A stretch of DNA of 29,649 nucleotides, taken from IMG/VR virus record IMGVR_UViG_649989948_000014, positions 1 to 29,649 of that record; one strand, 5' to 3'. Positions 1-26,757 of this stretch are shown here, one piece after another. Positions within the stretch are counted from its first letter, which is position 1. The number at the start of each line of letters is the position of its first letter. The position numbers were made by a program, and so were the translations under genes. The stretch is from a virus. Lineage: Duplodnaviria > Heunggongvirae > Uroviricota > Caudoviricetes. Under the pieces are notes generated by a model. It worked only from the letters and a program-made list of their open reading frames with translations. It did not search any database and was not told where the DNA came from.

Positions 1-462
<462 letters not shown>

Positions 463-503
463 AGACTCCTCCACAGAGAGAAAATGGCCCCGAAGGGCCA
501 TGA

Positions 504-1536
504 TTACGCCAGTTGTACGGACACGAACGCATCAGGGTCAGCCAGCAGCATCAGCGGTGCTGACTGAATCATGGTGAACTCACGCGCCGGATCGCCGGTG
601 GTCACCCAGTTTTTCGGGTAGCGGGCAGAGGCGTTAATACCTTCGCGCTGTGCGTCCGCATCCTGAATGCAGCCATAGGTGCGCAGACCGCGTGCCTGAG
701 TGTTCCCCAGCACCATCGTGTTGTCCGGCAGGAAGTTCTTTTTGACGTCGTTTTCCACGTACTGTCCGGAATACACGACGATCGCCGTATCGCCATACAT
801 CCCCTTATAGGACACCGCTTCGCCCAGGTCTTTTACCGCTGTCTCCAGCTCGGAATTAGAGCCGCGACGGGTATCCAGCTTCTCCTTGACGGCTTTGAAG
901 GAACGGAACAGCGCCCAGCCTTTCGGATCAAACACGATGATATTCACCACGCCGCTGGCGTTCAGCGCGTAGGCTTCGATATCGTCGGTCGGGTCATACG
1001 TGGACTTGTCACGCTTGCTCCACTCCGTGCCGCCGGACTGCGTGATGTTGTTCGCCGCACTGCGGCCCATATCCACCTCAACCGGATCGAAGGCTTCACC
1101 GGTCATGGTGTATTTGCCCTTGAGCACGGCAGAAACTGCCTGCATCTCTTCGACCTGAGCAATGGCCAGCTCTTCGTCACGCATGTTCTGCAGGATGATG
1201 CGACGGCGGCGGTAAGCCGGAAGCCGGGTCCGCCAGATTCTGCGGATCTTCATCCGGCAGGCGACGCAGGGTCATCTGCGGATTCACCTCATGCTTCGGC
1301 TTGACATAACCCGGCGTAAATTCAGAGGTGGAGCCGCCACGGGAACGGATAACCTCACCGGAAACAATTGGCGAAACGTACAGCGCCATGTTTACCAGTC
1401 CAGGAATTTGTGAGAGATAGACTTTCTCCGTGGTGAAGGGATAGCTCTCACGGAAAAAGAGACGCAGAAACAGCGGATCAAACTTAAATTTCTGCTCATT
1501 TGCCGCCAGCAGCTGGGCGGTTGTGTACATCGACAT
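504..1536 (-). pseudogene. E: lambda major capsid protein E, frameshifted
   Basis: Track ORFs 1177..1563 (MSMYTTAQLLAANEQKF...QNLADPA) and 504..1253 (...YRRRRIILQNMRDEELAIAQ...VSVQLA) together cover lambda E but in different frames; the junction shows CCGGCTT twice in tandem on the minus strand (plus ~1214-1227). Confidence 0.85.
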
Positions 1537-1591
1537 AAAAAAATCCCGTAAAAAAAGCCGCACAGGCGGCCTTTAGTGATGAAGGGTCAGG

Positions 1592-1924
1592 TTAAACGAT
1601 GCTGATTGCCGTTCCGGCAAACGCGGTCCGTTTTTTCGTCTCGTCGCTGGCAGCCTCCGGCCAGAGCACATCCTCATAACGGAACGTGCCGGACTTGTAG
1701 AACGTCAGTGTGGTGCTGGTCTGGTCAGCAGCAACTGCAAGAATGCCAACGGCAGCACCGTCGGTGGTGCCATCCCACGCAACCAGCTTACGGGTGGAGG
1801 TGTCCAGCATCAGCGGGGTCATTGCAGGCGCTTTCGCACTCAACCCGCCGGGCGCGGTTGCGGTATGAGCCGGGTCACTGTTGCCCAGCGGCTGGTAATG
1901 GGTAAAGGTTTCTTTGCTCGTCAT
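1592..1924 (-). CDS. D: head decoration protein D
   Basis: ORF 1592..1930 contains [41 protein letters not shown]...AISIV, near-identical to lambda gpD; start moved to the internal Met. Confidence 0.95.
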
Positions 1925-1933
1925 AAACATCCC

Positions 1934-3233
1934 TTACACTGGTGTGTTCAGCAAATCGTTAACGGCATCAGATGCCGGGTTACCTGCAGCCAGCGGTGCC
2001 GGTGCCCCCTGCATCAGACGATCCAGCGCAGTGTCACTGCGCGCCTGTGCACTCTGTGGTGCTGCGGCCAGAATACGGCGGGCCGTTTCCACGGTCATAC
2101 CGGGGGTTTCGGCCAGCACGCATGCCTGTTCTTCGCGTCCGTGAGCCTCCTCACAGTTGAGGATCCCCATAATGCGACTGTTTTCTGCCGCAACCGCTGC
2201 GGTGATCTGCGCGTTCACGTCCGGCTGCGCAGCGCTGGCGTTCTCGCCCTCCGTCGCTTGCACCACGCCAGTAACGTCAGCCTGCGAAGCAGTGGCTGAA
2301 ACAGTTGTTGATTGAGTCTCTTTGGTCATTCGCCCTCCTGAGAGACGGGATTTACGTGCATCCAGTGCATCACGCATGACGGTGATCGCATCGGTACTGT
2401 TCACAAGTTCATCAGCCAGTCCGGCATCAATGGCCTCCTGACCGCTGTACACTGCAGCCTCGGTATCCAGCACAGCCTGCACGGACAGGCCGGTATATGC
2501 CGACACCTTCTGTGCAAACATCCGGCGGGTTGCATCCATCCGGGACTGCAGTGTTTCCCGGACATCATCCGGTAGATGGCTGTAGGGGTTGCCATCCACC
2601 TTATGGCTGCCGCTGTAAATCAGCGTGATTTCCACGCCCTGTTTCTCCAGCGCAGCACCGTAATTACTGTGAGCCATCATGACGCCGATGGAGCCTGTCC
2701 GGGCGGTCTGCGTGACCAGACGCCGGGAGGCGGCGCTGGCAAGCAGCTGACCTGCACTGCAGTTCATGTCGTTGGCCAGCGCCCATACCGGTTTTATGTC
2801 TCGCACACGGGCGATGATGTCAGCACAGTCAAATGCTCCCGCCACCATCCCGCCCGGTGTGTCCATATCCAGCAGAATGCCGTCCACAATCGGATCGCTG
2901 GCAGCCTGTTGCAGACGGGCGATAATGCCGTTGTAACCGGTCATCCCCGAATACGGCTGCAGCGCCCGCGTCCGGCTGACCAGCGTGCCGGACACCGGCA
3001 GCACGGCGATGCCGTTCATGACCTGATAACTGCGGGCCTGTCGTGGTCCGTCATCATCAACGGATAACGCCAGCGCCGCGGGTGCCTCTCCGGCAGTCAG
3101 GCTGTCGCCGGACACCGCATCCGCCAGGCGGCTGATCCCAAGCTGGCCTGCAAGCGCACAAAAGAAAACCCGCGCATAGGCGGGTTCAAGCATCAGCGGC
3201 TCATTAAAGGCCATACTGGCAATATGCGGGAGA

Positions 3234-3253
<20 letters not shown>
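1934..3253 (-). CDS. C: capsid assembly protease C (minor capsid protein C; scaffold Nu3 nested in frame in its 3' part)
   Basis: ORF 1934..3388 contains TAELRNLPHIASMAFNEPLMLEPAYARVFF...NDLLNTPV matching lambda gpC; likely GTG start at 3253 overlapping the end of B. Confidence 0.92.
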
Positions 3254-6934
<3,681 letters not shown>

Positions 6935-6960
<26 letters not shown>

Positions 6961-7480
6961 TCAGCAACCCCGGTATCAGTTCATCCAGCGCGGCTGCTTT
7001 GTTCATGGCTTTGATAATATCCCGTTTCAGGAAATCAACATGTCGGTTTTCCAGTTCCGGAAAACGCCGCTGCACCGACAGGGGGAGCCCGTCGAGAATA
7101 CTGGCAATTTCACCTGCGATCCGCGACAACACGAAAGTACAGAATGCGGTTTCCACCACTTCAGCGGAGTCTCTGGCATTCTTCAGTTCCTGTGCGTCGG
7201 CCTGCGCACGCGTAAGTCGATGGCGTTCGTACTCAATAGTTCCTGGCTGGAGATCTGCCTCGCTGGCCTGCCGCAGTTCTTCAACCTCCCGGCGCAGCTT
7301 TTCGTTCTCAATTTCAGCATCCCTTTCGGCATACCATTTTATGACGGCGGCAGAGTCATAAAGCACCTCATTACCCTTGCCACCGCCTCGCAGAACGGGC
7401 ATTCCCTGTTCCTGCCAGTTCTGAATGGTACGGATACTCGCACCGAAAATGTCAGCCAGCTGCTTTTTGTTGACTTCCAT
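6935..7480 (-). CDS. Nu1: terminase small subunit Nu1
   Basis: 181-aa ORF MEVNKKQLADIFGASIRTIQNWQEQGMPVLRGGGKGNEVLYDSAAVIKWYAER... matches lambda Nu1. Confidence 0.96.
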
Positions 7481-7669: not shown

Positions 7670-7868
7670 CGTAACCTGTCGGATCGCCGGAAAGGACCCG
7701 CAAAATGATAATAATTATCATCTGCATGTCACAACGTGCATCTACGCCATCAAACCACGTCAAATAATCAATTATGACGCAGGTATCATATTAATTGATC
7801 TGCATCAACTTAACGTAAAAACAACTTCAGACAATACAAATCAGCGACACTGAATACGGGACAACCTC

Positions 7869-8102
7869 ATGTCAACGAAGAACAGAACCCGCAGAACAAC
7901 AACCCGCAACATCCGCTTTCCTAACCAAATGATTGAACAAATTAACATCGCTCTTGATCAAAAAGGGTCCGGGAATTTCTCAGCCTGGGTCATTGAAGCC
8001 TGCCGCCGGAGACTGTGCTCAGAAAAAAGAGTTTCTCCTGAAGCAAACAAAGAAAAGAGTGACATTACTGAATTGCTCAGAAAACAGATCAGACCAGATT
8101 GA
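7869..8102 (+). CDS. small DNA-binding-like protein, YlcI/YnfO (DUF3950)-like, possible ribbon-helix-helix fold
   Basis: 77-aa ORF with RNIRFPNQMIEQINIALDQKGSGNFSAWVIEACRRRL; sits next to cos as ylcI does next to the terminase genes in DLP12; family assignment from memory. Confidence 0.4.
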   Translation: MSTKNRTRRTTTRNIRFPNQMIEQINIALDQKGSGNFSAWVIEACRRRLCSEKRVSPEANKEKSDITELLRKQIRPD

Positions 8103-8143
8103 AGCAATTTAGATAATCGTGCAGACTACGCCCCTCATATCAC

Positions 8144-8569
8144 ATGGAAGGTACTACAATGGCTCAGGTTGCCATTTTTAAACAAATATTCGATAAAGTG
8201 AGAAATAATTTAAACTATCACTGGTTTTATTCTGAACTAAAACGTCACAATGTCTCACATTACATTTACTATTTAGCCACAGAGAATATTCATCTTGTTC
8301 TTGAAAACGATAATACGGTTTTAATAAAAGGACAGGGTAAGGTTGTAAATGTAAGATTTTCAAAAAATAAATGCCTTATAGAAGCCACCTTAAAAGGATT
8401 CAAATCAGGAGAGTTATCATTTTACGAATACAGGAAAAATCTTGCTACAGCAGGGGTTTTCAGATGGATTACAAATATCCACGAAAACAAAAGGTATTAC
8501 TATACCTTTGATAATTCATTACTCTTTACTGAGAACATTCAGAACACTACACAAATATTTCCGCACTAA
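8144..8569 (+). CDS. hypothetical protein (141 aa), AT-rich, downstream partner of the RHH-like gene
   Basis: Uninterrupted ORF 41 bp after the previous gene on the same strand; low-GC codon usage unlike the lambda backbone; no motif recognised. Confidence 0.4.
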
Positions 8570-8855
8570 ATCATAACGTCCGGTTTCTTCCGTGCCAGAA
8601 CCGGACTCGCTGGCATGATGAAATATGTGTACCCGGTAACCCCGGTGTGCATCGTTTTTGATTATTCCCACACACTCGCGCAGAAGGAGTTCCCCGTCGG
8701 GCTACGGTCTCTGTTAATACGGGAATACGGCGACGATACAGCGCATGATGTGTCAGGCTTGAATACCTTTATCCTTTAAAAGGGATATCAGTTAAGTTAT
8801 CCCGTGTAGGGTATAAGCCATTATCAAGCCCACCCGTAGATAGGCTTTGTAATGG

Positions 8856-10976: not shown

Positions 10977-11088
10977 AACCCCACCTCGCAGACAAAGCGG
11001 GTGTAAATTGAGGGAATACTACGAAACGTAACAGACTCGGAGTCAGTGAATAACTCAGGTATTGGGTTATCAGCTAATATCGAGACCC

Positions 11089-11120
11089 AAAAAATGGAAA
11101 AACCCGCTCGACGGCGGGTT
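11089..11120 (-). terminator. candidate intrinsic terminator upstream of the lysis cassette (tR'-like position)
   Basis: Minus strand reads ACCCGCcgtcgaGCGGGT followed by TTTTTCCATTTTTT; lies between the porin gene and the holin gene. Confidence 0.35.
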
Positions 11121-11547
11121 TAAGCTGTGTGACGAAGTAACCACTCTTAACAGCATAACCAATTTTTTACGTACGTAAACCACTAAATGATATTTGCGAG
11201 AATGCTACCGAGTATTGAAAACACCACTACAAATACATAAGCAAATCTCAACAAATAACCAACAAATAATTTCCAGCGTTATTTTTAGCTGGTTTAAATT
11301 GAACCTTCAAATTATAGAGCACTTATAAATAACAGCCATTAATATAAATTGGCTAATAGATTTATTTTTATTCAGCCAAGAGCCATGAATAGGATTCGAT
11401 AGAAAAAGTTCAGATAAAAATAGAGATCTACTTCACAAATCAAATGAGAAACCAAAACTTACATCTTGAAATAATCACATTGATTAGATGAATATTTATC
11501 GCGCAGTGACATCATTTTTTAATAATAGTTCAAAAAAAGGGCTCACG

Positions 11548-12630
11548 ATGAAAAAATTAACAGTGGCAATTTCTGCTGTAGCTGCATCAGTACTGATGGC
11601 GATGTCTGCTCAGGCAGCTGAAATTTATAATAAAGACAGTAACAAGCTGGATCTGTACGGGAAAGTTAATGCTAAGCACTACTTCTCCTCTAATGATGCA
11701 GATGATGGTGATACTACTTATGCCCGTCTTGGCTTCAAAGGTGAAACCCAAATCAACGATCAACTGACTGGTTTCGGTCAGTGGGAATATGAATTCAAAG
11801 GCAACCGCGCTGAATCTCAAGGTTCCTCCAAAGATAAAACCCGTCTTGCCTTCGCTGGCCTGAAATTCGGTGACTACGGCTCCATCGATTATGGCCGTAA
11901 CTACGGTGTAGCATACGATATTGGTGCATGGACCGACGTTCTGCCAGAATTCGGTGGCGATACCTGGACCCAAACAGATGTATTCATGACTGGTCGCACC
12001 ACAGGTGTTGCAACTTATCGTAACAATGACTTCTTTGGTCTGGTTGATGGTCTGAACTTTGCTGCTCAGTATCAGGGTAAAAATGACCGCACTGACGTAA
12101 CTGAAGCTAATGGTGATGGTTTCGGTTTCTCCACTACTTATGAGTATGAAGGATTCGGTGTAGGTGCAACCTATGCTAAATCTGACCGCACTAATAATCA
12201 GGTTATCTACGGTAACAACAGCCTGAATGCATCTGGTCAAAATGCTGAAGTATGGGCAGCTGGTCTGAAATATGATGCGAACAACATCTATCTGGCTACC
12301 ACCTATTCTGAAACCCAGAACATGACTGTTTTTGGTAATAACCATATTGCCAACAAAGCACAAAACTTCGAAGTAGTTGCACAATATCAGTTCGACTTCG
12401 GTCTGCGTCCGTCCGTTGCTTACCTGCAATCTAAAGGAAAAGACTTGGGTGCGTGGGGTGATCAGGACCTGGTTGAATATATTGATGTAGGTGCAACCTA
12501 TTACTTCAACAAAAATATGTCCACTTTTGTTGATTACAAAATCAACCTGATTGATAAGAGCGATTTCACGAAAGCATCTGGCGTTGCTACCGATGATATC
12601 GTTGCTGTAGGTATGGTTTACCAGTTCTAA
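11548..12630 (+). CDS. nmpC: outer membrane porin, NmpC/OmpD-type, apparently intact
   Basis: ORF 11488..12630; from the internal Met: [46 protein letters not shown]...GMVYQF (signal peptide, C-terminal aromatic residue); opposite strand to Q and the lysis genes, as nmpC is in DLP12. Confidence 0.9.
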
Positions 12631-13202: not shown

Positions 13203-13269
13203 CAACTTACTCCACAAAAATCAGACCAGAACGCCAATTACAAGCAAAAATCAACAAAACAGTATTAGT

Positions 13270-13410
13270 TGATTGTTATCTCTGACTTCATACTCCTGCT
13301 CCTGTCAGTGTTTTGGCGTAATTCTTCAGTATTCGGTAATCGGTCAAAACAGAACCGGGGAAACGATATAAGCGCAGGCGCATCCAGCGGTGGCGAAGAA
13401 GTTCTGCCAT
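13270..13410 (-). CDS. ylcG: YlcG-like small protein (46 aa)
   Basis: Hand-translated minus-strand ORF MAELLRHRWMRLRLYRFPGSVLTDYRILKNYAKTLTGAGV between rusA and Q; below the ORF-track length cutoff. Confidence 0.55.
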
Positions 13411-13424
13411 ATAAAACTCAAACA

Positions 13425-13787
13425 TCATTCATCTCCCAGTTCAGTGATGGTCAGTTCCAGCTTTCCACCTTTGACAACCGGCATCTTCACAACGCGGTAA
13501 TCAACGACCTGAGCATCATCCAGCCAGAAACCTGCTTTAGTGAGTGCGTCAAAAGCGGCTTTTTGCAGATTATCCAGGTCACGGCGACGGCGATCCGGCA
13601 TGTGGCACTCAATGCGGATTTTCACAGGCATAGCCAGGCCGATATCCAGCATTGCGTTTTTAATGATTCGGGCGACGTTATCGCGGTATGCCTGCCCCTC
13701 TGCGCTGACGTGCGTGCGCCCGCGATTATGGCGGTAATAGCGATTATTGCTCGGAGGCCAGGGTAATGTGATGCTGTAGGTATTCAC
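13425..13787 (-). CDS. rusA: Holliday junction resolvase RusA
   Basis: 120-aa [77 protein letters not shown]... matches RusA. Confidence 0.93.
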
Positions 13788-14074
13788 GCCTTAATAACCC
13801 CCTCTTTCAGCCAGATAACCTGTGTTCTCGCCATACCTTCCAGCGCGCATTCTTTTGCATATGCAGCATCGACAAAATGTGTGCGGCGGTCGATTTCGTC
13901 GTGGCAGGCAGAACATGCAATGGTGGCAATCAGGTCTGGCGGTTTGGTACCGGTGCCGCACAATCCAGTCAGCCGGATATGTGCCAGTACAGACGTTTCA
14001 GGGTTGCCATTACATACGCCAGGGATTCTTACCTGGCATTCCCGACTACGCGCTGCTTTTCTCAAATCAGCCAT
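13784..14074 (-). CDS. ybcO: YbcO-like putative nuclease (DUF1364)
   Basis: ORF 13784..14113; from the internal Met [64 protein letters not shown]... (96 aa, Cys-rich). Confidence 0.8.
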
Positions 14075-14237
14075 GATTCCTCCTTGCTGCCAGTCGCAAC
14101 CATTTTTTATCAACCAGGCTGGCGGTATATCCGAGCAGTGTTGGTATTTCGGAAGGCTTCAGCTCCGGTTTACGCTTACGACGATTTGGTACTCTGTAGA
14201 TGTGTCCGTTCATGACACGAATAAGCGGTGTAGCCAT
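14067..14237 (-). CDS. ninE: NinE-like small protein (56 aa)
   Basis: Hand-translated [59 protein letters not shown], start overlapping the ybcN stop (TAATG); coordinates approximate. Confidence 0.5.
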   Translation of the reverse strand: MATPLIRVMNGHIYRVPNRRKRKPELKPSEIPTLLGYTASLVDKKWLRLAARRNHG

Positions 14238-14692
14238 TACGCCTCCTGTTTGTCGCGGAGCTGCTGGAACTCGCAGCTCTGCGGAATAGTCAGGTGGCAG
14301 CCAATATTCATCGCCCAGGCTTCAACCTTACACAGGAAGACATACATCTCTCCGGTATCAAGATCGGAGGTATGGCGTAACGACTGGATAGTGGTGATAT
14401 CACCGGTTACGACATCAACCAGGTCTTTGGTTTCATAACCGAGATATGTGTGTTTGAGAGCATCTTTTACCCAAGCTGGAGTGGCGAACGTTTTACCCTT
14501 GCTGATGAGGTATTCACTGATTTCGCTGTACCACATGTGGCTGAGTGCATTCTGGGAAAGACTGCGTCTCTCGCGCCACGGTTTAAGCACCATGCGAAAG
14601 CATTTGCCGTCCTCCAGATAAGGCTGGATCTGCCGACCGATAGCGGTGAAGTTACCGCGATGCAATTTGATACCATCTTGTGGGAGGTTCAC
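14237..14692 (-). CDS. ybcN: YbcN-like protein (DLP12 nin-region protein, reported DNA base-flipping activity)
   Basis: 151-aa [64 protein letters not shown]..., same length and position as DLP12 YbcN; likely GTG start. Confidence 0.85.
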
Positions 14693-14884
14693 GCTTCACC
14701 TCCGCAGAGATCAAACGCTGGATGCAAAATATCGCAGGTGCATTTCTGCATCTGTGAATGGAGAAGAGAGGTTGGATTGTATGTGCGCATAAACGTCCCC
14801 GTTTAGCGCAGAAGTCACCGGAGGAGTTCAAACTCCGGTGACTTAATTATGGCAAGTTGATTGTTGAAAATCAATTTAGTGGAT

Positions 14885-15667
14885 TTAGGCGCAATACAAA
14901 GGATCATTAGCAGCTCTAATACCGCCCTGAATCGCAAGCCCTGTATGGCAATTTGACATTGAGCATGATTGCCATCTGTGCAAGGGACCTCCATTAATCG
15001 AAACTTCCAGCAGATCTTTATCTCCTTTCATCCTGACCCCTTCATACAACATATCAAGACGCTCAACAATCAATCCTGTTGGAGGTTCCATTTTTAGAAC
15101 GAGGGCAAACTCTCCTGGCCCACGTCGTATTGTTATACGCGGGCCGGTACACTCCACATCCCAATTGTCTGATTTAGCTTTCCATTCATTTTCATCTATC
15201 AGTAAAGTCTCCTTACCAATAGAATTACAGAAAATTCCTGATAAAAGCATCGGTCCATGTGGTATGGGTGAAGGTTTCACAGAAAGAATGGGTTGTTCGT
15301 TGACTACAATCAAATTTTGACAGTTATGAAACGTCACTCCTGCAAATTTTACTGTTATAGGCTCATTATGAAAATCAAACATTTCATTTGCAAAACCAGC
15401 CTGTAAGCACTTGGGATTTCTGTCAGCTATTTCCACTGTCTGTGCTGAAAGTCTACCACGAGCTCTTTTTTGATTGCATTGGGAGCAAAGAAGTGTCATT
15501 CCATTCGGATCATGTACTTTGGCATCAACGAAGTCAGGTTTAAAATGCTCATAATCATAAAATCCAAATCCACAAATTACACAGCCAAAGCCGCACCTTT
15601 GCCTTATCTGACGTTTTATTGTCTCAGGTATTCTTCTTGAGAGCCCGTGTTTATTAATATTGTCCAT
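14885..15667 (-). CDS. HNH-motif (His-Me finger) nuclease-like protein with uncharacterised ~190-aa C-terminal domain
   Basis: 260-aa ORF; N-terminus CGFGCVICGFGFYDYEHFKPDFVDAKVHDPNGMTLLCSQCNQKR has two CxxC pairs bracketing conserved His and Asn; AT-rich codon usage; rest unrecognised. Confidence 0.6.
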   Translation of the reverse strand: MDNINKHGLSRRIPETIKRQIRQRCGFGCVICGFGFYDYEHFKPDFVDAKVHDPNGMTLLCSQCNQKRARGRLSAQTVEIADRNPKCLQAGFANEMFDFHNEPITVKFAGVTFHNCQNLIVVNEQPILSVKPSPIPHGPMLLSGIFCNSIGKETLLIDENEWKAKSDNWDVECTGPRITIRRGPGEFALVLKMEPPTGLIVERLDMLYEGVRMKGDKDLLEVSINGGPLHRWQSCSMSNCHTGLAIQGGIRAANDPLYCA

Positions 15668-15841
15668 ATGGTTAGTACGCTATAAGTTTGTTTCTATAAT
15701 TTTACCACAATAGATAAGTTTGTATCAGAAATCGCTATATGGAGTGAGCGGAATATTTATATTATTCATGCAATTGCTCTCCCGTACGCAGCCCGCACTT
15801 CCGTCATCGCAGAATGACGGAAGCCTTACTAACTAGCGCCT

Positions 15842-16165
15842 TTATTGAAACAGATTCTGAGGTAAATGCGGCAATACTCGACTCCACTTATCATCCTGCC
15901 ACGGCTGAAGTTTTACATGTGCCGTTTCTCGGACGAGGATTGCTCGCGCTCTGTTGAGTATCTGGGGATATTCTTGCTCGATAGAAGTGAAGCGACCAGC
16001 TTCACGATGCTCCGCAACCTGAAGAAGAGGAGTAACGTTCTGGTAGGTAATTAACATCACATTCCCTGCTCGCCATAACCAGGCGAGTGTGCAAAGTTCG
16101 TTATCAGTGAATTGTTTTGTGATTGGGGATTGTTGAACTGCTAGAACGAGAACGCCAGCATCCAT
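15842..16165 (-). CDS. hypothetical protein (107 aa), upstream of and co-oriented with the HNH-motif gene
   Basis: Uninterrupted ORF between the recombinase and the HNH gene; an overlapping plus-strand ORF (15866..16054) is shorter; no motif recognised. Confidence 0.35.
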   Translation of the reverse strand: MDAGVLVLAVQQSPITKQFTDNELCTLAWLWRAGNVMLITYQNVTPLLQVAEHREAGRFTSIEQEYPQILNRARAILVRETAHVKLQPWQDDKWSRVLPHLPQNLFQ

Positions 16166-16276
16166 TGGCAGTCCCTATAGTAAAACCATAGCTCAGGACG
16201 CTTCGTTCAGGATAGATAATTTTATTGTACTTACCTAACTTTCTTACTATAGCACGGTTGAAAAAGTGATTATTAC

Positions 16277-17803
16277 TCAAAAATAAACCTCACCATCAAC
16301 CATATATTTGAGAGTACTTATCGCCTGCTGGGCAGATATTGTTTTCATTAAAGGATAGTGTTTAAAAACAATGCCATTCATAAAATAGATATCACAGGTT
16401 TTATTATCTGTATTGATTATGATTTTTTCGAATGTTTTATAGGCAAGTGTACGACATAGCTCTCGCCCATTTTTACTGGTTAAGTCAATAGCATGAAAAT
16501 CACCAAGTGAACTCACCGCTTTACTCTTCAAAGTTTTTAATGATACAGAAGCCCTTCGTAATTCCTTATCTAATACTCTGATTTTTTCTGCTATAGCGGT
16601 AACTTCAGGCGCAACAGATAATGCAGCAATTAAATTATTAATTTTCATCTGGAGCTCAATAATTTTCAACTCTAAAGTTTCATTAGCATCTTTCTTGTTT
16701 TCAACTGGTTGGATTTTACTACAATTAAAAAGCAACTCATTAATGATATTATAATCAACCAAATCTCTCTTTATTGATGGCCTGTCACATCGATGCAGTC
16801 TTCTCATCGGACAAACATAATAGCCATGCAAACTTCCAGATACCGCATGAACAATCATGGTATTACCACAAGCCTCGCACTTCATAACTGTTCGAAGTAG
16901 ATTTATCAACATAGGATTTTTGCTACTATTGCTAATACCAAAAGGTGCCAACCGAATTTCCTGCACAGCGTAAAACAAATCATCTGATATGACTCTGGGA
17001 TAATAGCCAGCGATTTCACTTATTCCTTTACCTCTTGCACGATATGAAGGTACGCATATACCTATCAGAGCTTTATTCGCTAATAATTTTTCAATTACAG
17101 AAGGTCCCCATGCACTTTCTTTTCCTGAGAAATTCTTTACAGCATGATCATTTAAATACTTGGCTATTGCATTCAATGAGCGCCTTTCCATCCTGAGTTT
17201 AAAAATTAGCTCAATAGTTTTCACCCTGTCGGGGTCTGGAACAAAAGCCGTTCTTTTGTCATCCAATGAGAGCCATCTCGGACAAGACGCCGTCATAATC
17301 GTGCCTGACTCCAGTGCATCCTGCCGTTTTTTCTTCCATGATAATTTAACCCGACTTGACTTTATCTCGCTTTCTTCATTTGCCCTTTGTGCTATAAGTA
17401 TGGCTTTTATTAATGAATATGGCTCATTCAATGAGTCAATATTATAGACTGTATTATCGCAAAGAGTTATAACATCAATACCGTGATTCAAAATCAATTT
17501 CAGACGCTCAATCGCTTCACCGACTTTTTCTCTTGAAAGTCTGTCCAGACTTTCAACTAACAATGTAGTCCCTGGCAATATATAACCATGTTCTATAGCA
17601 TCTAAAAATTCCGAAAAAGCTCCTGATTGTGCATGCTTTCCATTGAATGCGCTTAACCCCAGATCTTCATACGTTACGGTATCAAGGTAATAATCACTAT
17701 TTACCTTTAGCCATTCAGTAATAAGCCTTCTCTGGCGGTTTAATGAATCACCAGACATCTGACCTGGTGATGAAAATCGCATATATGCTATGGCTTTTTT
17801 CAT
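16277..17803 (-). CDS. ybcK: large serine recombinase (YbcK-like)
   Basis: 508-aa ORF; N-terminal resolvase-type motif AIAYMRFSSPGQ (catalytic Ser), C-terminal Cys cluster CEACGNTMIVH...YYVCPMRRLHRC; same size and neighbourhood (next to emrE) as DLP12 ybcK. Confidence 0.85.
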   Translation of the reverse strand: MKKAIAYMRFSSPGQMSGDSLNRQRRLITEWLKVNSDYYLDTVTYEDLGLSAFNGKHAQSGAFSEFLDAIEHGYILPGTTLLVESLDRLSREKVGEAIERLKLILNHGIDVITLCDNTVYNIDSLNEPYSLIKAILIAQRANEESEIKSSRVKLSWKKKRQDALESGTIMTASCPRWLSLDDKRTAFVPDPDRVKTIELIFKLRMERRSLNAIAKYLNDHAVKNFSGKESAWGPSVIEKLLANKALIGICVPSYRARGKGISEIAGYYPRVISDDLFYAVQEIRLAPFGISNSSKNPMLINLLRTVMKCEACGNTMIVHAVSGSLHGYYVCPMRRLHRCDRPSIKRDLVDYNIINELLFNCSKIQPVENKKDANETLELKIIELQMKINNLIAALSVAPEVTAIAEKIRVLDKELRRASVSLKTLKSKAVSSLGDFHAIDLTSKNGRELCRTLAYKTFEKIIINTDNKTCDIYFMNGIVFKHYPLMKTISAQQAISTLKYMVDGEVYF

Positions 17804-18058
17804 GGTGACACCTGCTAAAGTATGCTTTTATAAACCTTAGTGGTGAGATATGATTTTTGTTTAATTTTTATTTAAAAAGACAATTAAGGTCACATTATCT
17901 TGAATATACAACAATAATCGTATTGCAATTTTCTTACACCATAATCTTGAAAGCACAAAAGAATGAATAAAAACTAAAGACATTAACAAAAAGCATAAAA
18001 CGAGGCCCATATAAATATACGAGCCTCCATATTTTAGTCGTTTAAAAACAAATTATTT

Positions 18059-18391
18059 TTAATGTGGTGTGCTTCGTGACAATAAATTAATAACCAACAC
18101 ACCGGCACAAATCAACATCATGCCTATAATGGCTGGCAGGTCCAACCGTTGGCCGAAAAATCCCCATGATAGTAAGCTAATCAGGACAATACCGACTCCT
18201 GACCAGATAGCATAAGCAATCCCTGTAGGAATATAAGCCAGCGTCTGAGCTAATAACCAGAATGATGCACAATAACAAATAATTGTACCAACAGATGGCC
18301 ATAACCGTGTAAAACCTTCTGAAAACTTCATTAAGGTTGTACCAATGACCTCTGCAAGTATTGCACCACCAAGATAAATATAAGGATTCAT
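18059..18391 (-). CDS. emrE: small multidrug resistance efflux transporter EmrE
   Basis: ORF 18059..18445; from the internal Met MNPYIYLGGAILAEVIGTTLMKFSEGFTRLWPSVGTIICYCASFWLLAQTLAYIPTGIAYAIWSGVGIVLISLLSWGFFGQRLDLPAIIGMMLICAGVLVINLLSRSTPH (110 aa, four TM) matches EmrE. Confidence 0.92.
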   Translation of the reverse strand: MNPYIYLGGAILAEVIGTTLMKFSEGFTRLWPSVGTIICYCASFWLLAQTLAYIPTGIAYAIWSGVGIVLISLLSWGFFGQRLDLPAIIGMMLICAGVLVINLLSRSTPH

Positions 18392-18458
18392 AGCATATTC
18401 TTTCCTGTTCAAACTGGAGAGAATTGTACTACAGTTTGAACTCAACTCACCTGTTTCA

Positions 18459-18761
18459 TCATTGTGTACCCATTGATGTTCTTTTATATACCCTCAATAC
18501 CCGTTTCATCGCGGCACTCTGGCGACACTCCTTAAAAATCAAATTCGTGCTCACCTTTCCTTCCCATTCTTCTCTGGTAGCGAACCGATAATACACCGTT
18601 CGCCAGACCTTACCATCAACGACCAGGATTCCTGCCCGCGCCATTTTAGCCGCAGCCTGATTTATGCTGGTTACCGTTGCGCCTGTTACCGCGGCAACGT
18701 CCTGCGCACAGAATTTCTTATGAGTCCCCAGGTAATGAATAATTGCCTCTTTGCCCGTCAT
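18459..18761 (-). CDS. ren: Ren protein
   Basis: 100-aa ORF MTGKEAIIHYLGTHKKFCAQDVAAVTGATVTSINQAAAKMARAGILVVDGKVWRTVYYRFATREEWEGK... matches lambda Ren; follows P. Confidence 0.9.
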   Translation of the reverse strand: MTGKEAIIHYLGTHKKFCAQDVAAVTGATVTSINQAAAKMARAGILVVDGKVWRTVYYRFATREEWEGKVSTNLIFKECRQSAAMKRVLRVYKRTSMGTQ

Positions 18762-19459
18762 ACCCTTGCTCCTTTCAGCCCAAACTTAGCTTTGATTTCT
18801 GCGATCTTCGCCAGAGCCTGTGCACGATTTAGAGGTCTACCGCCCATGACAGGAAGTTGTTTTACTGGTTCAGGTATAGCCTCACCACGGTTAATTCGTG
18901 CGGTCATACAGGACAGTTCATCGGCAGCCTTGCGCCGTAATTCCGCGTCAGTCAACGCATTGGCCCGCATGTTCTGATACAGGTTGGTAACCAGCCAGTA
19001 GTGCGCGTTTGATTTCCACGGATAAGACTCTGCATCCGGATACAGCCCGCGCTTCCGGCAATACTCGTAAACCATATCAACCAGCTCGCTGGCGTTTGGC
19101 AGCCCGGCGGTAACGGATGCTTCTTCCCGGCACCAGGCGACAAACTGCCCGGGTGATGGCAGGAATGGTCGATTCTGCCGACGGGCTACGCGCATTCCAG
19201 CGTTAACCTGTTCCATTGTGGTGATCCCGTTTTCCCAGAAAGCCAGAACCCACTGGCGGCGGATTTCGTTCAGTTCATTCTGGTCACGGTTAGCCAGGCT
19301 CGCCGGGAAAGTTGCCAGTAACTGGCTGAACACACCGTTGATGATCTGCGCTACCTGCTGTACCTGCGGCTTTTCGTCGTACTGTTCCGGCATGTTGTTG
19401 GCGATCCGGCGCATCTGCTCACGGTCAAAGTTAACCATCTGTGCGGCGATGTTTTTCAT
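18758..19459 (-). CDS. P: replication protein P (DnaB helicase loader)
   Basis: 233-aa ORF MKNIAAQMVNFDREQMRRIANNMPEQYDEKPQVQQVAQIINGVFSQLLATFPASLANRDQNE... near-identical to lambda P. Confidence 0.96.
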   Translation of the reverse strand: MKNIAAQMVNFDREQMRRIANNMPEQYDEKPQVQQVAQIINGVFSQLLATFPASLANRDQNELNEIRRQWVLAFWENGITTMEQVNAGMRVARRQNRPFLPSPGQFVAWCREEASVTAGLPNASELVDMVYEYCRKRGLYPDAESYPWKSNAHYWLVTNLYQNMRANALTDAELRRKAADELSCMTARINRGEAIPEPVKQLPVMGGRPLNRAQALAKIAEIKAKFGLKGARV

Positions 19460-20475
19460 AAATCCACCCCGTAAATCCAGTCAGTGTTTGTCAGGTCGAG
19501 TTTTGATTTTCCGGTTGTCACGCCAGCCTGTTGCTTGTTACGGTTGATTTCGAGTTGGGTCCACTTGTCGCGGAGTTTGGCCGGACTCAGCACGTTACCG
19601 GACCAGAAGTTGTCCTGGCATGCCCAGCGGAACAGCACGCACATGTCGCGGTGGTTACGTCCGTCACGTTCACGCATCAGGCGGATATCGTTAGCCCACC
19701 CTGCAAAATTCGGTTTTCTGGCTGAGGGCGCGATGGTCTTCACCATGTTAAACATCCACTCTGCGGCGGTCAGGTCTTCTGCTGTCCCCCACTTGCTGCC
19801 GCTCTGAATTGCAGCATCCAGTTTCTCCAAAGGAAAGTCGTTTTCTGGCTGGTCAGAGGATTCGCCAGAATTCTCGGACGAAAAAGGTTTTATATTGTCT
19901 TTTGTTAGTTTGTCTTTTGTGTTTACCTGATTCGGGTAAACGCCTTTACCTGATTTGGGTAAACTTTTCTTACCTGATTCAGGTAAATTTACCTCTTTCA
20001 GGTAAACTTTATTTTTCTTACCTGATTCGGGTAATGTTGACCATTCACTGACCACATTATTAATGCCGATATTCCGCCCACTCTGAATAAAAATCCCACG
20101 CTTTACCAGAACACTTTTTGCAGCAGAACACTTGTGCGGCAATATCCCGGTCAACTCGGAAAGTTGCTCGTTGCTCACCCAATCCAGTTTTTTATTAAAG
20201 CCATATGTTTTGCGCATGACAGCCAGGAAGACCAGAAGCTGGTGCTGTGTTAATCCGGCCAGCATCACAGCTTCCAGCAACTCATTTGCAATGCGCGTAT
20301 AACCATCATCGAGATCTGCCACGCGCGGCTCCTTTTGTGCCGCATCCGGCACTGGAAAATTGAATATCTCAGCAGTGTTTGCCATAATTCCTCCCGCAAT
20401 GAGTGTGTTACGATTTGCACCTGAAAGTCGGTTCTGTTCCAGCAGACCGGCTTTCGCCATTTCTGAACCTGTCAT
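19456..20475 (-). CDS. O: replication initiator O (start may be the internal Met near 20385)
   Basis: ORF contains MANTAEIFNFPVPDAAQKEPRVADLDDGYTRIANELLEAVMLAGLTQHQLLVFLAVMRKTYGFNK..., lambda O-like N-terminal domain and C-terminal P-interaction region; iterons inside the gene. Confidence 0.9.
   Translation of the reverse strand: MTGSEMAKAGLLEQNRLSGANRNTLIAGGIMANTAEIFNFPVPDAAQKEPRVADLDDGYTRIANELLEAVMLAGLTQHQLLVFLAVMRKTYGFNKKLDWVSNEQLSELTGILPHKCSAAKSVLVKRGIFIQSGRNIGINNVVSEWSTLPESGKKNKVYLKEVNLPESGKKSLPKSGKGVYPNQVNTKDKLTKDNIKPFSSENSGESSDQPENDFPLEKLDAAIQSGSKWGTAEDLTAAEWMFNMVKTIAPSARKPNFAGWANDIRLMRERDGRNHRDMCVLFRWACQDNFWSGNVLSPAKLRDKWTQLEINRNKQQAGVTTGKSKLDLTNTDWIYGVDL
19924..20034. repeat. replication origin iterons (four ~18-bp direct repeats) with adjacent AT-rich region (about 19880-19921)
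   Basis: Plus strand shows tacctgattcgggtaaa / tacctgatttgggtaaa / tacctgattcaggtaaa / tacctgattcgggtaa at ~23-bp spacing, each an internal palindrome, inside O, followed by aaaaggttttatattgtcttttgttagtttgtcttttgtg. Confidence 0.85.
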
Positions 20476-25702: not shown

Positions 25703-25854
25703 GCGAAATTAACTAGAAGCCAAAGATAAAATCATCGCTGAGCAGGAGAAAATCGCTAACGGAGAAAAGACAGTAAGTCAGTATATGAAAACCGCATGAT
25801 ATCATCAGATAAAAATCGGTCGTAAAGCGAAATATTAATACCAGAACAAACGAG

Positions 25855-25878
25855 TCGAGGTAAATTATATTACCTCGA
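25855..25878. terminator. hairpin between the convergent TraR-like and membrane-protein genes
   Basis: TCGAGGTA aattatat TACCTCGA perfect 8-bp inverted repeat in an AT-rich spacer; no strong U-run, so terminator function is tentative. Confidence 0.3.
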
Positions 25879-25912
25879 TAAATTAACTAAAACTTGCCCG
25901 CTATATACTATA

Positions 25913-26515
25913 TCATTCAGTATCATCACGCGCGGTCTGTGCATATGTCACTACCGCACCTAATATATTAATTTTCTTTTCAACATAGATAATATTATCG
26001 TACTCATAATTGCCATACGGATAGCAAATGCGAATATTCTCATGTAGATCGGGGTCATCCACCTCAGCTCCAGAACAACTTTTTGAACTACCGGAAGTAT
26101 ACCGATACGGTGCAACATAAGACGATGTCTCTCCAGGCAAAAAATAAGTTAGTGTCGTAAGGGGTATAATCAGAAAAAATCCAGCAAATATGCACATCCC
26201 TGCATAAACCTTAAGGTATGCTGACAGACTCTTCCAGCCTCTTTGTTTTACTATCCCCTTCTTAACCCAAAACAGAGATAACAGAAAAGCTATTCCCATG
26301 CTAAACAGAATGTAATAGTGGGATATACTCTGATTAAGAAACGTGACCCTGTAGATATCTGCCCGCCACCAGAAGAAAAGGAAAATAAAGATCAGCCCTG
26401 AAACTGTCATGCAAATCAAATAAGGATACGAATCTTTTTTCATGTTTAGCGCCCATAAAATTTTTCCTGACCCGGACAAATTTACCATCCATTTTTTGCG
26501 CAGAAAATAGCTCAT
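25913..26515 (-). CDS. multi-pass inner-membrane protein of unknown function (start may be an internal Met near 26443)
   Basis: 200-aa ORF on the strand opposite to the surrounding pL operon, very AT-rich; hydrophobic segments LICMTVSGLIFIFLFFWW, YILFSMGIAFLLSLFWV, VYAGMCIFAGFFLIIPLTTLTYFL, then a ~70-aa hydrophilic C-terminus. Confidence 0.6.
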   Translation of the reverse strand: MSYFLRKKWMVNLSGSGKILWALNMKKDSYPYLICMTVSGLIFIFLFFWWRADIYRVTFLNQSISHYYILFSMGIAFLLSLFWVKKGIVKQRGWKSLSAYLKVYAGMCIFAGFFLIIPLTTLTYFLPGETSSYVAPYRYTSGSSKSCSGAEVDDPDLHENIRICYPYGNYEYDNIIYVEKKINILGAVVTYAQTARDDTE

Positions 26516-26757
26516 TACTTACTGCACAATAATACACAAAATTGCGTAAATTTTTTGCATGGATTTTAGCTCTTTCAGCCGAAATTTAAGGGGTAAATAG
26601 CATTTCCTAAAAGCAACTGCACCAACCCAACAGAATGGGCTACCGCTTACGTTGAGAGCAAAAAAGTGTATAGCAGCAATGAACAGCATCCTCGCACTGA
26701 CGAGGATTTCTTTTATCTGAACTCGCTACGGCGGGTTTTGTTTTATGGAGATGATAA

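Follow-up and report, generated by a model that had tools for sequence, protein, structure and literature searches.

The closest described relative of the locus analyzed here is the emrE-ybcK-ybcL-ybcM gene set of the cryptic prophage DLP12 in Escherichia coli K-12. Our window, by which we mean the whole 29,649-nucleotide (nt) stretch of a virus of the Caudoviricetes (IMG/VR record IMGVR_UViG_649989948_000014), carries an AT-rich segment at the same position, between ren and ylcH/ybcN, and the two loci have emrE, ybcK, ylcJ, and the nin module in common, with ~96% nucleotide identity across the module. They differ in that a truncated Bro-N/P22AR_C gene and a gene encoding a 260-amino-acid (260-aa) protein here replace ybcL and ybcM. 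The emrE/ybcK part is textbook DLP12 content; what is new is the base-pair definition of the slot in which these genes lie, the use of that slot by the defense systems BstA and PD-Lambda-1, and the presence in it, as one allele, of an uncharacterized HNH-fold family.

Extra genes in lambdoid phages, known as morons, were reportedly described by Juhala et al. in 2000 and by Cumby et al. in 2012. The definition of a moron is also given in reviews (PMC6379469, PMC9122126). Like morons, the segment consists of extra genes of deviant composition that lie between conserved operon neighbors, are absent from relatives, and are of likely benefit to the lysogen, and a terminator-like hairpin follows emrE; unlike them, it contains several nested units rather than one gene, and its own promoters and terminators are putative. 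The locus also resembles prophage defense hotspots (PMC9122126; PMC9519451) in its conserved flanks and variable content, which includes BstA and PD-Lambda-1, but it belongs to another phage family and position (the lambdoid early-right operon) and has non-defense cargo (emrE, a hydrolase, and ybcL/ybcM). BstA, an abortive-infection protein (Owen et al., 2021; PMC8585504) and, like the 260-aa protein, the product of a single prophage gene, is encoded in MIN10 and ~100 other genomes exactly where the window has the 260-aa gene, flanked by the P22AR_C open reading frame (ORF) and the nin promoter. The two proteins nevertheless lack sequence similarity, BstA having a KilA-N-like domain and the 260-aa protein an HNH fold, and bstA of the BTP1 prophage is found downstream of cI and not in the nin region. 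Compared with HNH nucleases (the CBASS effector Cap5, EcoKMcrA, and the GVE2 HNH endonuclease), the 260-aa protein has no Pfam HNH match, has Asn65 and not His at the last motif position, and ends in an all-beta C terminus that is unmatched.

A defective lambda-like prophage of E. coli MS 145-7 (NZ_CP146655) matches the window at 100% identity. We consider it likely that the AT-rich segment represents a recombinational cargo slot (a moron/defense hotspot) in its filled state, located in the early-right (pR) operon of prophages with a DLP12/phage-82-type nin region. On one side of the slot would be the replication module (O-P-ren) and on the other the nin module (orf33/ylcH-ybcN-ninE-ybcO-rusA-ylcG-Q).

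Composition and borders of the ren-to-nin segment

The first-pass annotation had described positions 14693-18458 as markedly AT-rich compared with their flanks, and computation bore this out: the G+C content (GC) of the interval is 38.7%, compared with 50.2% in the left flank (13218-14692) and 50.5% in the right flank (18459-20475). Likelihood segmentation with two breakpoints, placed at 15163 and 18498, gained 58.6 nats over a model with no break. The island as refined below (14875-18490) has a GC of 38.2%, practically as low as any 3.6-kb segment within the window reaches (the lowest value, 0.3816, belongs to the stretch starting at 14841). Codon usage gave the same picture, with GC at third codon positions (GC3) being 0.30-0.33 in the 260-aa gene, ybcK, and emrE but 0.45-0.60 in quuD, rusA, ybcO, ninE, ybcN, ren, P, and O. 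The deviant nucleotide composition characteristic of morons is therefore present (38.2-38.7% GC versus ~50%, together with the GC3 contrast).

A megablast search of 5,426 complete E. coli genomes with positions 14000-19000 as the query gave matches in 4,506, but query cover was at least 80% in only 296 of these. Representative loci were fetched and aligned to the window; the census reported here consists of ~20 inspected loci plus BLAST counts, not all 3,534 places at which the ybcN/leader flank occurs (in 2,944 genomes). On the left, homology ended at 14874-14880 in nine of ten comparison loci, whatever the cargo, and in GPEC1352 the BLAST alignment ended at 14810, yet the promoter hexamers were conserved. 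On the right, the border of homology fell at 18490-18495, inside ren, in all four emrE-less loci that keep ren. On these alignments, the borders of the slot are fixed: one precedes the stop codon of ren by ~10 codons, and the other is the putative -35 element of the orf33(ylcH)/ybcN promoter. The features at the two borders are as follows.

14689..14790, minus strand: orf33/ylcH-like ORF of 33 aa, annotated in NZ_CP146655 and, as orf33, in phage 82 (X92588.1)
14812..14844, minus strand: perfect hairpin with a 12-bp stem (AAGTCACCGGAG / CTCCGGTGACTT), found by repeat search, between the putative promoter and orf33
14846..14874, minus strand: putative sigma-70 promoter, TTGATT-17 nt-CATAAT, from a promoter scan, conservation, and the phage 82 annotation
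18459..18490, minus strand: cargo-specific 3' tail of ren (last 10-11 codons); homology to emrE-less prophages starts at 18490-18495

Conservation across an alignment of 11 cargo contexts begins exactly at TTGATT. This hexamer and the ATAAT core are invariant in all 11, the 17-nt spacer is variable, and the first base of the -10 element is C in 9 of the 11 contexts, the exceptions being N2512 and GPEC1352, which have A. In the 1996 record of phage 82 (X92588.1), the same elements are annotated as a putative minus_35 and minus_10, and homology between that record and the window stops at this -35; the record also labels the hairpin at 14812..14844 a “possible regulator-binding site.” In other strains this hairpin has C-to-T changes in its left arm, for which G-U pairs would persist in the minus-sense RNA. 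The orf33/ylcH-like ORF overlaps the ybcN start and is conserved in 11 of 11 cargo contexts, marking it as backbone. Because orf33, the hairpin, and the putative promoter are conserved across cargo contexts, the 182 bp from 14693 to 14874 belong to the backbone. At the other end, Ren proteins are identical through ...AAMKRVL, but beyond this point their last 8-11 residues are different for every one of the five cargo types that we examined; the right border therefore lies inside ren, and the Ren tail appears, from this comparison, to be unconstrained. The limits originally given to the segment were thus approximately right but off by ~180 bp on the left (14875) and ~30 bp on the right (~18490).

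Two repeats were seen at the borders. A 6-bp inverted repeat, TTGATT-N6-AATCAA (window 14857-14874), overlaps the putative -35; its outer arm is invariant, as is the ATCA core of its inner arm, and its 6-nt center differs in almost every context. It may serve as an operator, or it may be no more than a chance by-product of the -35 hexamer; apart from this left-border site, the pattern TTGAT-N5-9-ATCAA has a single other occurrence, at 12530. The island is also bracketed by a direct repeat of 18 nt whose copies match at 15/18 positions (83%), TTGAAAATCAATTTAGTG at 14864-14881 and TTAAAAATCAAATTCGTG at 18532-18549. We rejected this repeat as a sign of site-specific insertion, as the right copy lies ~40 bp inside conserved ren and the pair is probably due to chance. 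A search of the island for att-like or cassette-boundary repeats returned only short, chance-level pairs.

Alternative contents and mosaic structure

Between the same ren and orf33/ybcN flanks, we found at least 11 alternative contents, the presence/absence pattern seen with morons. Where emrE-ybcK is present, the space from ybcK to the promoter holds nothing, ybcL/ybcM, a BD-FAE alpha/beta hydrolase, P22AR_C plus the 260-aa gene, or P22AR_C plus a gene for a 309-aa protein. Where emrE-ybcK is absent, the slot holds two small ORFs; a 169-aa ORF with ead/Ea22-like genes; a 150-aa ORF with a YajG-like lipoprotein gene; a gene for a 500-aa DUF4041/T5orf172 protein; a NADAR and PRTase-CE pair that takes the place of ren; or, in eco-241, a 169-aa ORF together with DUF4041 and a full Bro-N/P22AR_C gene. 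The 309-aa protein in the inner slot of MIN10 is BstA (PADLOC E = 3.6e-121), an allele found in ~104-110 genomes, and the DUF4041 protein that fills the whole slot in GPEC1352 is PD-Lambda-1 (PADLOC E = 1.9e-198); BstA (PMC8585504) and PD-Lambda-1 (PMC9519451) are experimentally validated defense systems. The locus therefore has what distinguishes a prophage defense hotspot, conserved flanks around hypervariable content that includes known defense systems. No description of the lambdoid ren-to-nin slot as a hotspot was found in the literature searched.

These comparisons support the first-pass view of the segment as AT-rich accessory cargo that interrupts a lambdoid backbone between ren and ybcN. 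Since the break in composition is genuine and same-flank prophages hold other cargo at the same position, the locus shows neither a featureless GC profile nor one block with identical boundaries in all related prophages. The cargo found in the window comprises the following units.

14875..15790, minus strand: 260-aa gene cassette (coding sequence 14885-15667), a rare allele of the inner slot
15842..16165, minus strand: 107-aa ORF, a 5'-truncated Bro-N + P22AR_C antirepressor-like remnant (Pfam P22_AR_C, E = 1.3e-15)
16211..18050, minus strand: ybcK + ylcJ cassette, with homology from 16211 (O157) or 16238 (K-12 type) and a GC of 35.1%
16277-17803, minus strand: ybcK, encoding a 508-aa large serine recombinase (Pfam Resolvase + Recombinase + Zn_ribbon_recom)
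17861-18010, minus strand: ylcJ-like 49-aa ORF, annotated
18059..18391, minus strand: emrE, encoding a 110-aa small-multidrug-resistance efflux transporter (NCBIfam and Pfam Multi_Drug_Res)

These units differ in distribution. The emrE+ybcK module, run as a single query, was found in 1,399 of the 5,426 genomes, so that about half of the same-flank prophages are without it (2,944 flank genomes versus 1,399 module genomes), and the 260-aa gene was found in only 82 of the 5,426, in every case at ≥99% identity. Comparison loci depart from the window at five internal breakpoints.

16211: O157:H7, in which the space from ybcK to the promoter is empty
16238: K-12 type, with ybcL/ybcM
15994: the alpha/beta-hydrolase variant
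15849: MIN10
15791: FDAARGOS_772

Identities are discordant as well. In FDAARGOS_772, ybcK, emrE, and ren are 99.9-100% identical to the window, whereas the left side is 89.8-95.5% identical and carries a different gene. Other strains have a left half that is 100% identical to the window and a right half that is only ~96% identical, and in the inspected records with the 260-aa allele the rightward backbone segments (ybcK, ren, and P) are up to 4-5% diverged from the window. Judged from these alignments, the content is a nested mosaic of at least four pieces with separate histories, namely, emrE, ybcK(+ylcJ), the truncated Bro-N/P22AR_C gene, and the 260-aa gene.

The proposal that all four genes arrived as a single horizontally acquired block does not survive these unequal module frequencies, internal breakpoints, and discordant identities. 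It had drawn on the minus-strand location of the four ORFs; the ORFs were confirmed, but the entire operon from cro to Q is on the minus strand, and a shared strand is therefore uninformative about common origin. The intergenic stretches that had seemed unusually long are real, but that at 17804-18058 is partly occupied by the ylcJ-like 49-aa ORF and a terminator-like hairpin. Nor does the 107-aa ORF belong with the AT-rich cargo, as had been supposed, since its GC is intermediate (46.9%) and it is a truncated gene of the backbone antirepressor type. At the same position, strain eco-241 encodes a 202-aa Bro-N+P22AR_C protein, of which residues 100-202 align with the product of the 107-aa ORF at 83% identity; because the match extends only over those residues, we regard the ORF as a 5'-truncated remnant. 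The truncation point, at ~16153-16210, abuts the ybcK module.

Origin and expression of the cargo

We propose that foreign AT-rich genes would first enter the slot by illegitimate recombination and that the resulting alleles would then be shuffled between co-resident or infecting lambdoid phages through homologous recombination in the P/ren and promoter/ybcN flanks, with the shared inner modules (ybcK and the P22AR_C remnant) also serving as exchange homology. Recombination of lambdoid phages with resident defective prophages is known (PMC3945230). The cargo would probably be transcribed from its own promoters in the AT-rich spacers and be silenced or modulated by H-NS, which we suggest because genomic SELEX (systematic evolution of ligands by exponential enrichment) in K-12 placed sigma-70 promoters with H-NS marks in the homologous emrE-ybcK and ybcK-ybcL spacers (PMC3946193). 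Downstream of any cargo, transcription of the nin module would start afresh or be boosted at the conserved left-border promoter. As for benefits, emrE would give the lysogen cation and drug efflux, and the inner slot next to the nin promoter would serve mainly in superinfection defense, with the 260-aa protein as a nuclease-type effector.

Several points weigh against this interpretation. We infer homologous recombination in the flanks from patterns of identity, and the census is limited to the ~20 inspected loci and the BLAST counts. Scans of the region showed no enrichment over shuffled sequence, with 15 promoter-like sites versus 12.9 expected and 4 terminator-like sites versus 3.2; of these, we used only sites also backed by conservation or prior annotation. 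The 260-aa protein matched no PADLOC 2023 model (nor was there a PADLOC match for any of the four cargo proteins), and phage defense by its gene is a prediction that makes it a candidate. Finally, emrE, the BD-FAE hydrolase, ybcL/ybcM, and the YajG-like lipoprotein are non-defense cargos, and the slot is therefore a general accessory slot and not a dedicated defense locus.

Two rival explanations center on YbcK, which has the architecture of a large serine recombinase, with RFSSPGQ and DRLSR motifs in its translation. The ratio of nonsynonymous to synonymous substitution rates (dN/dS) of ybcK is 0.05-0.07 at synonymous divergences (dS) of up to 0.18, indicating strong purifying selection, and the protein is therefore maintained by selection; this is so despite its mid-position in mostly defective prophages with a tyrosine integrase of their own. 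Comparison of a K-12-type locus with a remnant in ATCC 25922 showed ybcK+ylcJ to be cleanly inserted or deleted, as a unit of 2,083 bp, between emrE and ybcL; the right edge of this unit corresponds to window position 18050/18051, just past the emrE stop codon. Neither repeats nor a target duplication were found at the junctions of this indel. Homologues of YbcK with 42-56% identity are encoded in Erwinia after tail-fiber genes at a prophage end adjoining host lepA; others are encoded in Yersinia after tail-fiber genes and in Pantoea in the nin region. The only functional report that we found is that ybcK overexpression confers sabinene tolerance (PMC7181518). YbcK is a strongly conserved phage serine recombinase.

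One conceivable but improbable role would be that of an integron-like recombinase that captures and exchanges cassettes and is responsible for the diversity of genes downstream of it, as far as the nin promoter. At least five different contents do lie directly downstream of ybcK, and the gene is under purifying selection even in defective prophages. However, the breakpoints proximal to ybcK differ between variants, the distal border (the -35) is identical in prophages that have no ybcK, a search of the island turned up no recurring motif of a recombination site, and the truncated gene at one junction indicates illegitimate recombination.

Slightly less credible still is that the whole 3.6 kb is one YbcK-mobilized element, inserted site-specifically into the 3' end of ren with a replacement tail. 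The three recombinase domains, the two motifs, and the strong purifying selection would fit such an element, as would the right junction inside ren, where the cargo supplies a new ren C terminus in the manner often seen with integrative elements, and the integrase-like position of the Erwinia homologue at a prophage end by lepA. Against this, the same outer borders occur in five cargo types that lack ybcK; the borders on the ybcK side vary (15994, 16211, and 16238), unlike those of a site-specific crossover; ybcK has a central and not a terminal position in the segment; ybcK+ylcJ forms an indel of its own, with repeat-free junctions; and the left and right halves of the island are discordant in identity. 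The constant att ends and terminal recombinase of a large-serine-recombinase element are thus lacking.

We likewise give very little credence to the idea that the low GC reflects ordinary lambdoid heterogeneity or functional AT-richness of genes long-standing in the lineage, since, although the window has other AT-rich patches (33-39% GC) and emrE+ybcK is widespread (1,399 genomes) and present in isolated phages, about half of the same-flank prophages lack emrE-ybcK, the cargo GC3 is 0.30-0.33 versus 0.45-0.60 for neighbors in the same operon, the 260-aa family extends across beta- and gamma-proteobacterial prophages, and the 260-aa allele is ≥99% identical in 82 genomes while the inspected backbones are up to 4-5% diverged.

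The cargo slot, running from ren codon ~89 to the nin -35, could be mined for accessory and defense genes across thousands of E. coli prophages, as has been done for P2/P4. Variants of the emrE-ybcK island are carried by the isolated phages Turner, 3W, and PhiR70_1, and the package therefore moves on apparently viable viruses. For emrE, which encodes a model multidrug transporter, this means spread within a modular package on lambdoid phages that are apparently viable.

Cargo genes and prophage setting

The 260-aa protein (WP_001348590) matched phrog_6544 over its full length and had no match to a Pfam or NCBIfam family at E ≤ 0.01. The label “HNH” that it had been given is borne out by its fold and by a weak PHROG HNH match (E = 4.8e-4, the only HNH sequence hit) but not by Pfam. 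It has an HNH-fold N-terminal domain, followed by an all-beta C-terminal domain of ~180 residues without a significant structural match. Although no HNH sequence model recognized it, the beta-beta-alpha-metal fold, the catalytic His, and the zinc-binding Cys pair are all present, and the residues invariant among homologues include R24, C25, C29, C32, E40, H41, H52, C61, C64, and N65. More than 300 homologues of ~250-265 aa, with 50-79% identity, are found in Enterobacterales, Burkholderia, Comamonas, Pseudomonas, and Vibrio, so that the family is spread over beta- and gamma-proteobacterial prophages. In the contexts inspected (Enterobacter, Klebsiella, Citrobacter, and Pseudomonas) it is a solitary gene in prophage early regions, and the E. 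coli records inspected have the same neighbors in three of four cases, the fourth, ST12468, being cut short by insertion sequence (IS) IS3/IS1 insertions. Literature searches returned no description of the protein.

From its position and architecture, we tentatively nominate the 260-aa protein as a candidate nuclease-type superinfection defense, which gives one concrete gene to pursue in the slot. A bolder view, which we hold a shade more tentatively, is that it founds a single-gene anti-phage family, in which the beta domain would sense infection and release the nuclease, and that the ren/P(nin) interval is a general, uncatalogued defense hotspot comparable to those of P2/P4. In D217-5 (locus 2365-3998), the PRTase-CE + NADAR pair that replaces ren has weak PADLOC matches only (PRTase_III-A and PDC-M42C), and from its sequence it is possibly another uncharacterized defense pair.

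The emrE product matched NCBIfam SMR_efflux_EmrE over residues 1-110 of 110 with 240.6 bits (cutoff, 226), and the dN/dS of the gene is 0.01-0.16. We rejected a 128-aa reading as an upstream extension and take the ATG at 18391 as the start. Two hairpins lie beside the gene.

18002..18027, minus strand: terminator-like hairpin with an 11-bp stem, followed by GTTTTATGCT, from a terminator scan, ~30 nt downstream of the emrE stop
18407..18441, minus strand: hairpin with a 13-bp stem and no T-run after it, from a repeat search, between the ren stop and the emrE ribosome-binding site

The second of these, judging by its location, may be a regulatory or processing element for emrE. A second emrE lineage, with ~92% nucleotide identity and a dS of 0.42 relative to the window, has BLAST rows in roughly 2,300 further genomes; at the one locus inspected, in ATCC 25922 (NZ_CP037449 4946908-4950351), it belongs to an ompC-like porin-ybcM-ybcL-emrE remnant that lies between yedK and fliE with neither ybcK nor other phage genes. 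In FDAARGOS_772, a deletion corresponding to window 17062-18202 has joined ybcK and emrE, the former contributing its 3' part and the latter its 5' part, and both are annotated as pseudogenes; the module therefore also decays.

The backbone had been described as of the DLP12/lambda type, which is correct for the DLP12-type nin region and the lambda-type recombination genes but does not make the prophage DLP12 itself. We rejected that identity because, at its terminus in NZ_CP146655, a tyrosine integrase gene and an excisionase gene adjoin ybhC and not argU, the DLP12 integration site (PMC6379469). The MS 145-7 prophage has lambda-type int, xis, exo, bet, and gam genes and an S24-peptidase repressor gene, followed among its early genes by cro, a ydaT-like gene, O, P, and ren. 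Its nin-to-lysis region is of the DLP12/phage-82 type, with orf33 (ylcH-like), ybcN, ninE, ybcO, rusA, ylcG, and quuD and then an nmpC/ompC porin gene, essD, and rrrD; from ybcN to quuD, it is 94-97% identical in nucleotide sequence to K-12-type loci and to phage 82 (X92588.1). The early-right operon is on the minus strand from cro to Q. In the head-gene region (window 1-7000), the gene for the major capsid protein carries a frameshift and an adjoining IS3-family element truncates the FI gene, and the prophage in the window is therefore defective.

Three further AT-rich patches with 33-39% GC occur in the window, at 7751-8750, 11001-11750, and 25751-26750. By the annotation of the identical genome, the first lies near ylcI/DUF1398 genes, the second is upstream of the nmpC/ompC porin gene, and the third falls at a gene for a 200-aa hypothetical protein, which is on the opposite strand between a TraR-like gene and xis. 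They are probably additional morons.

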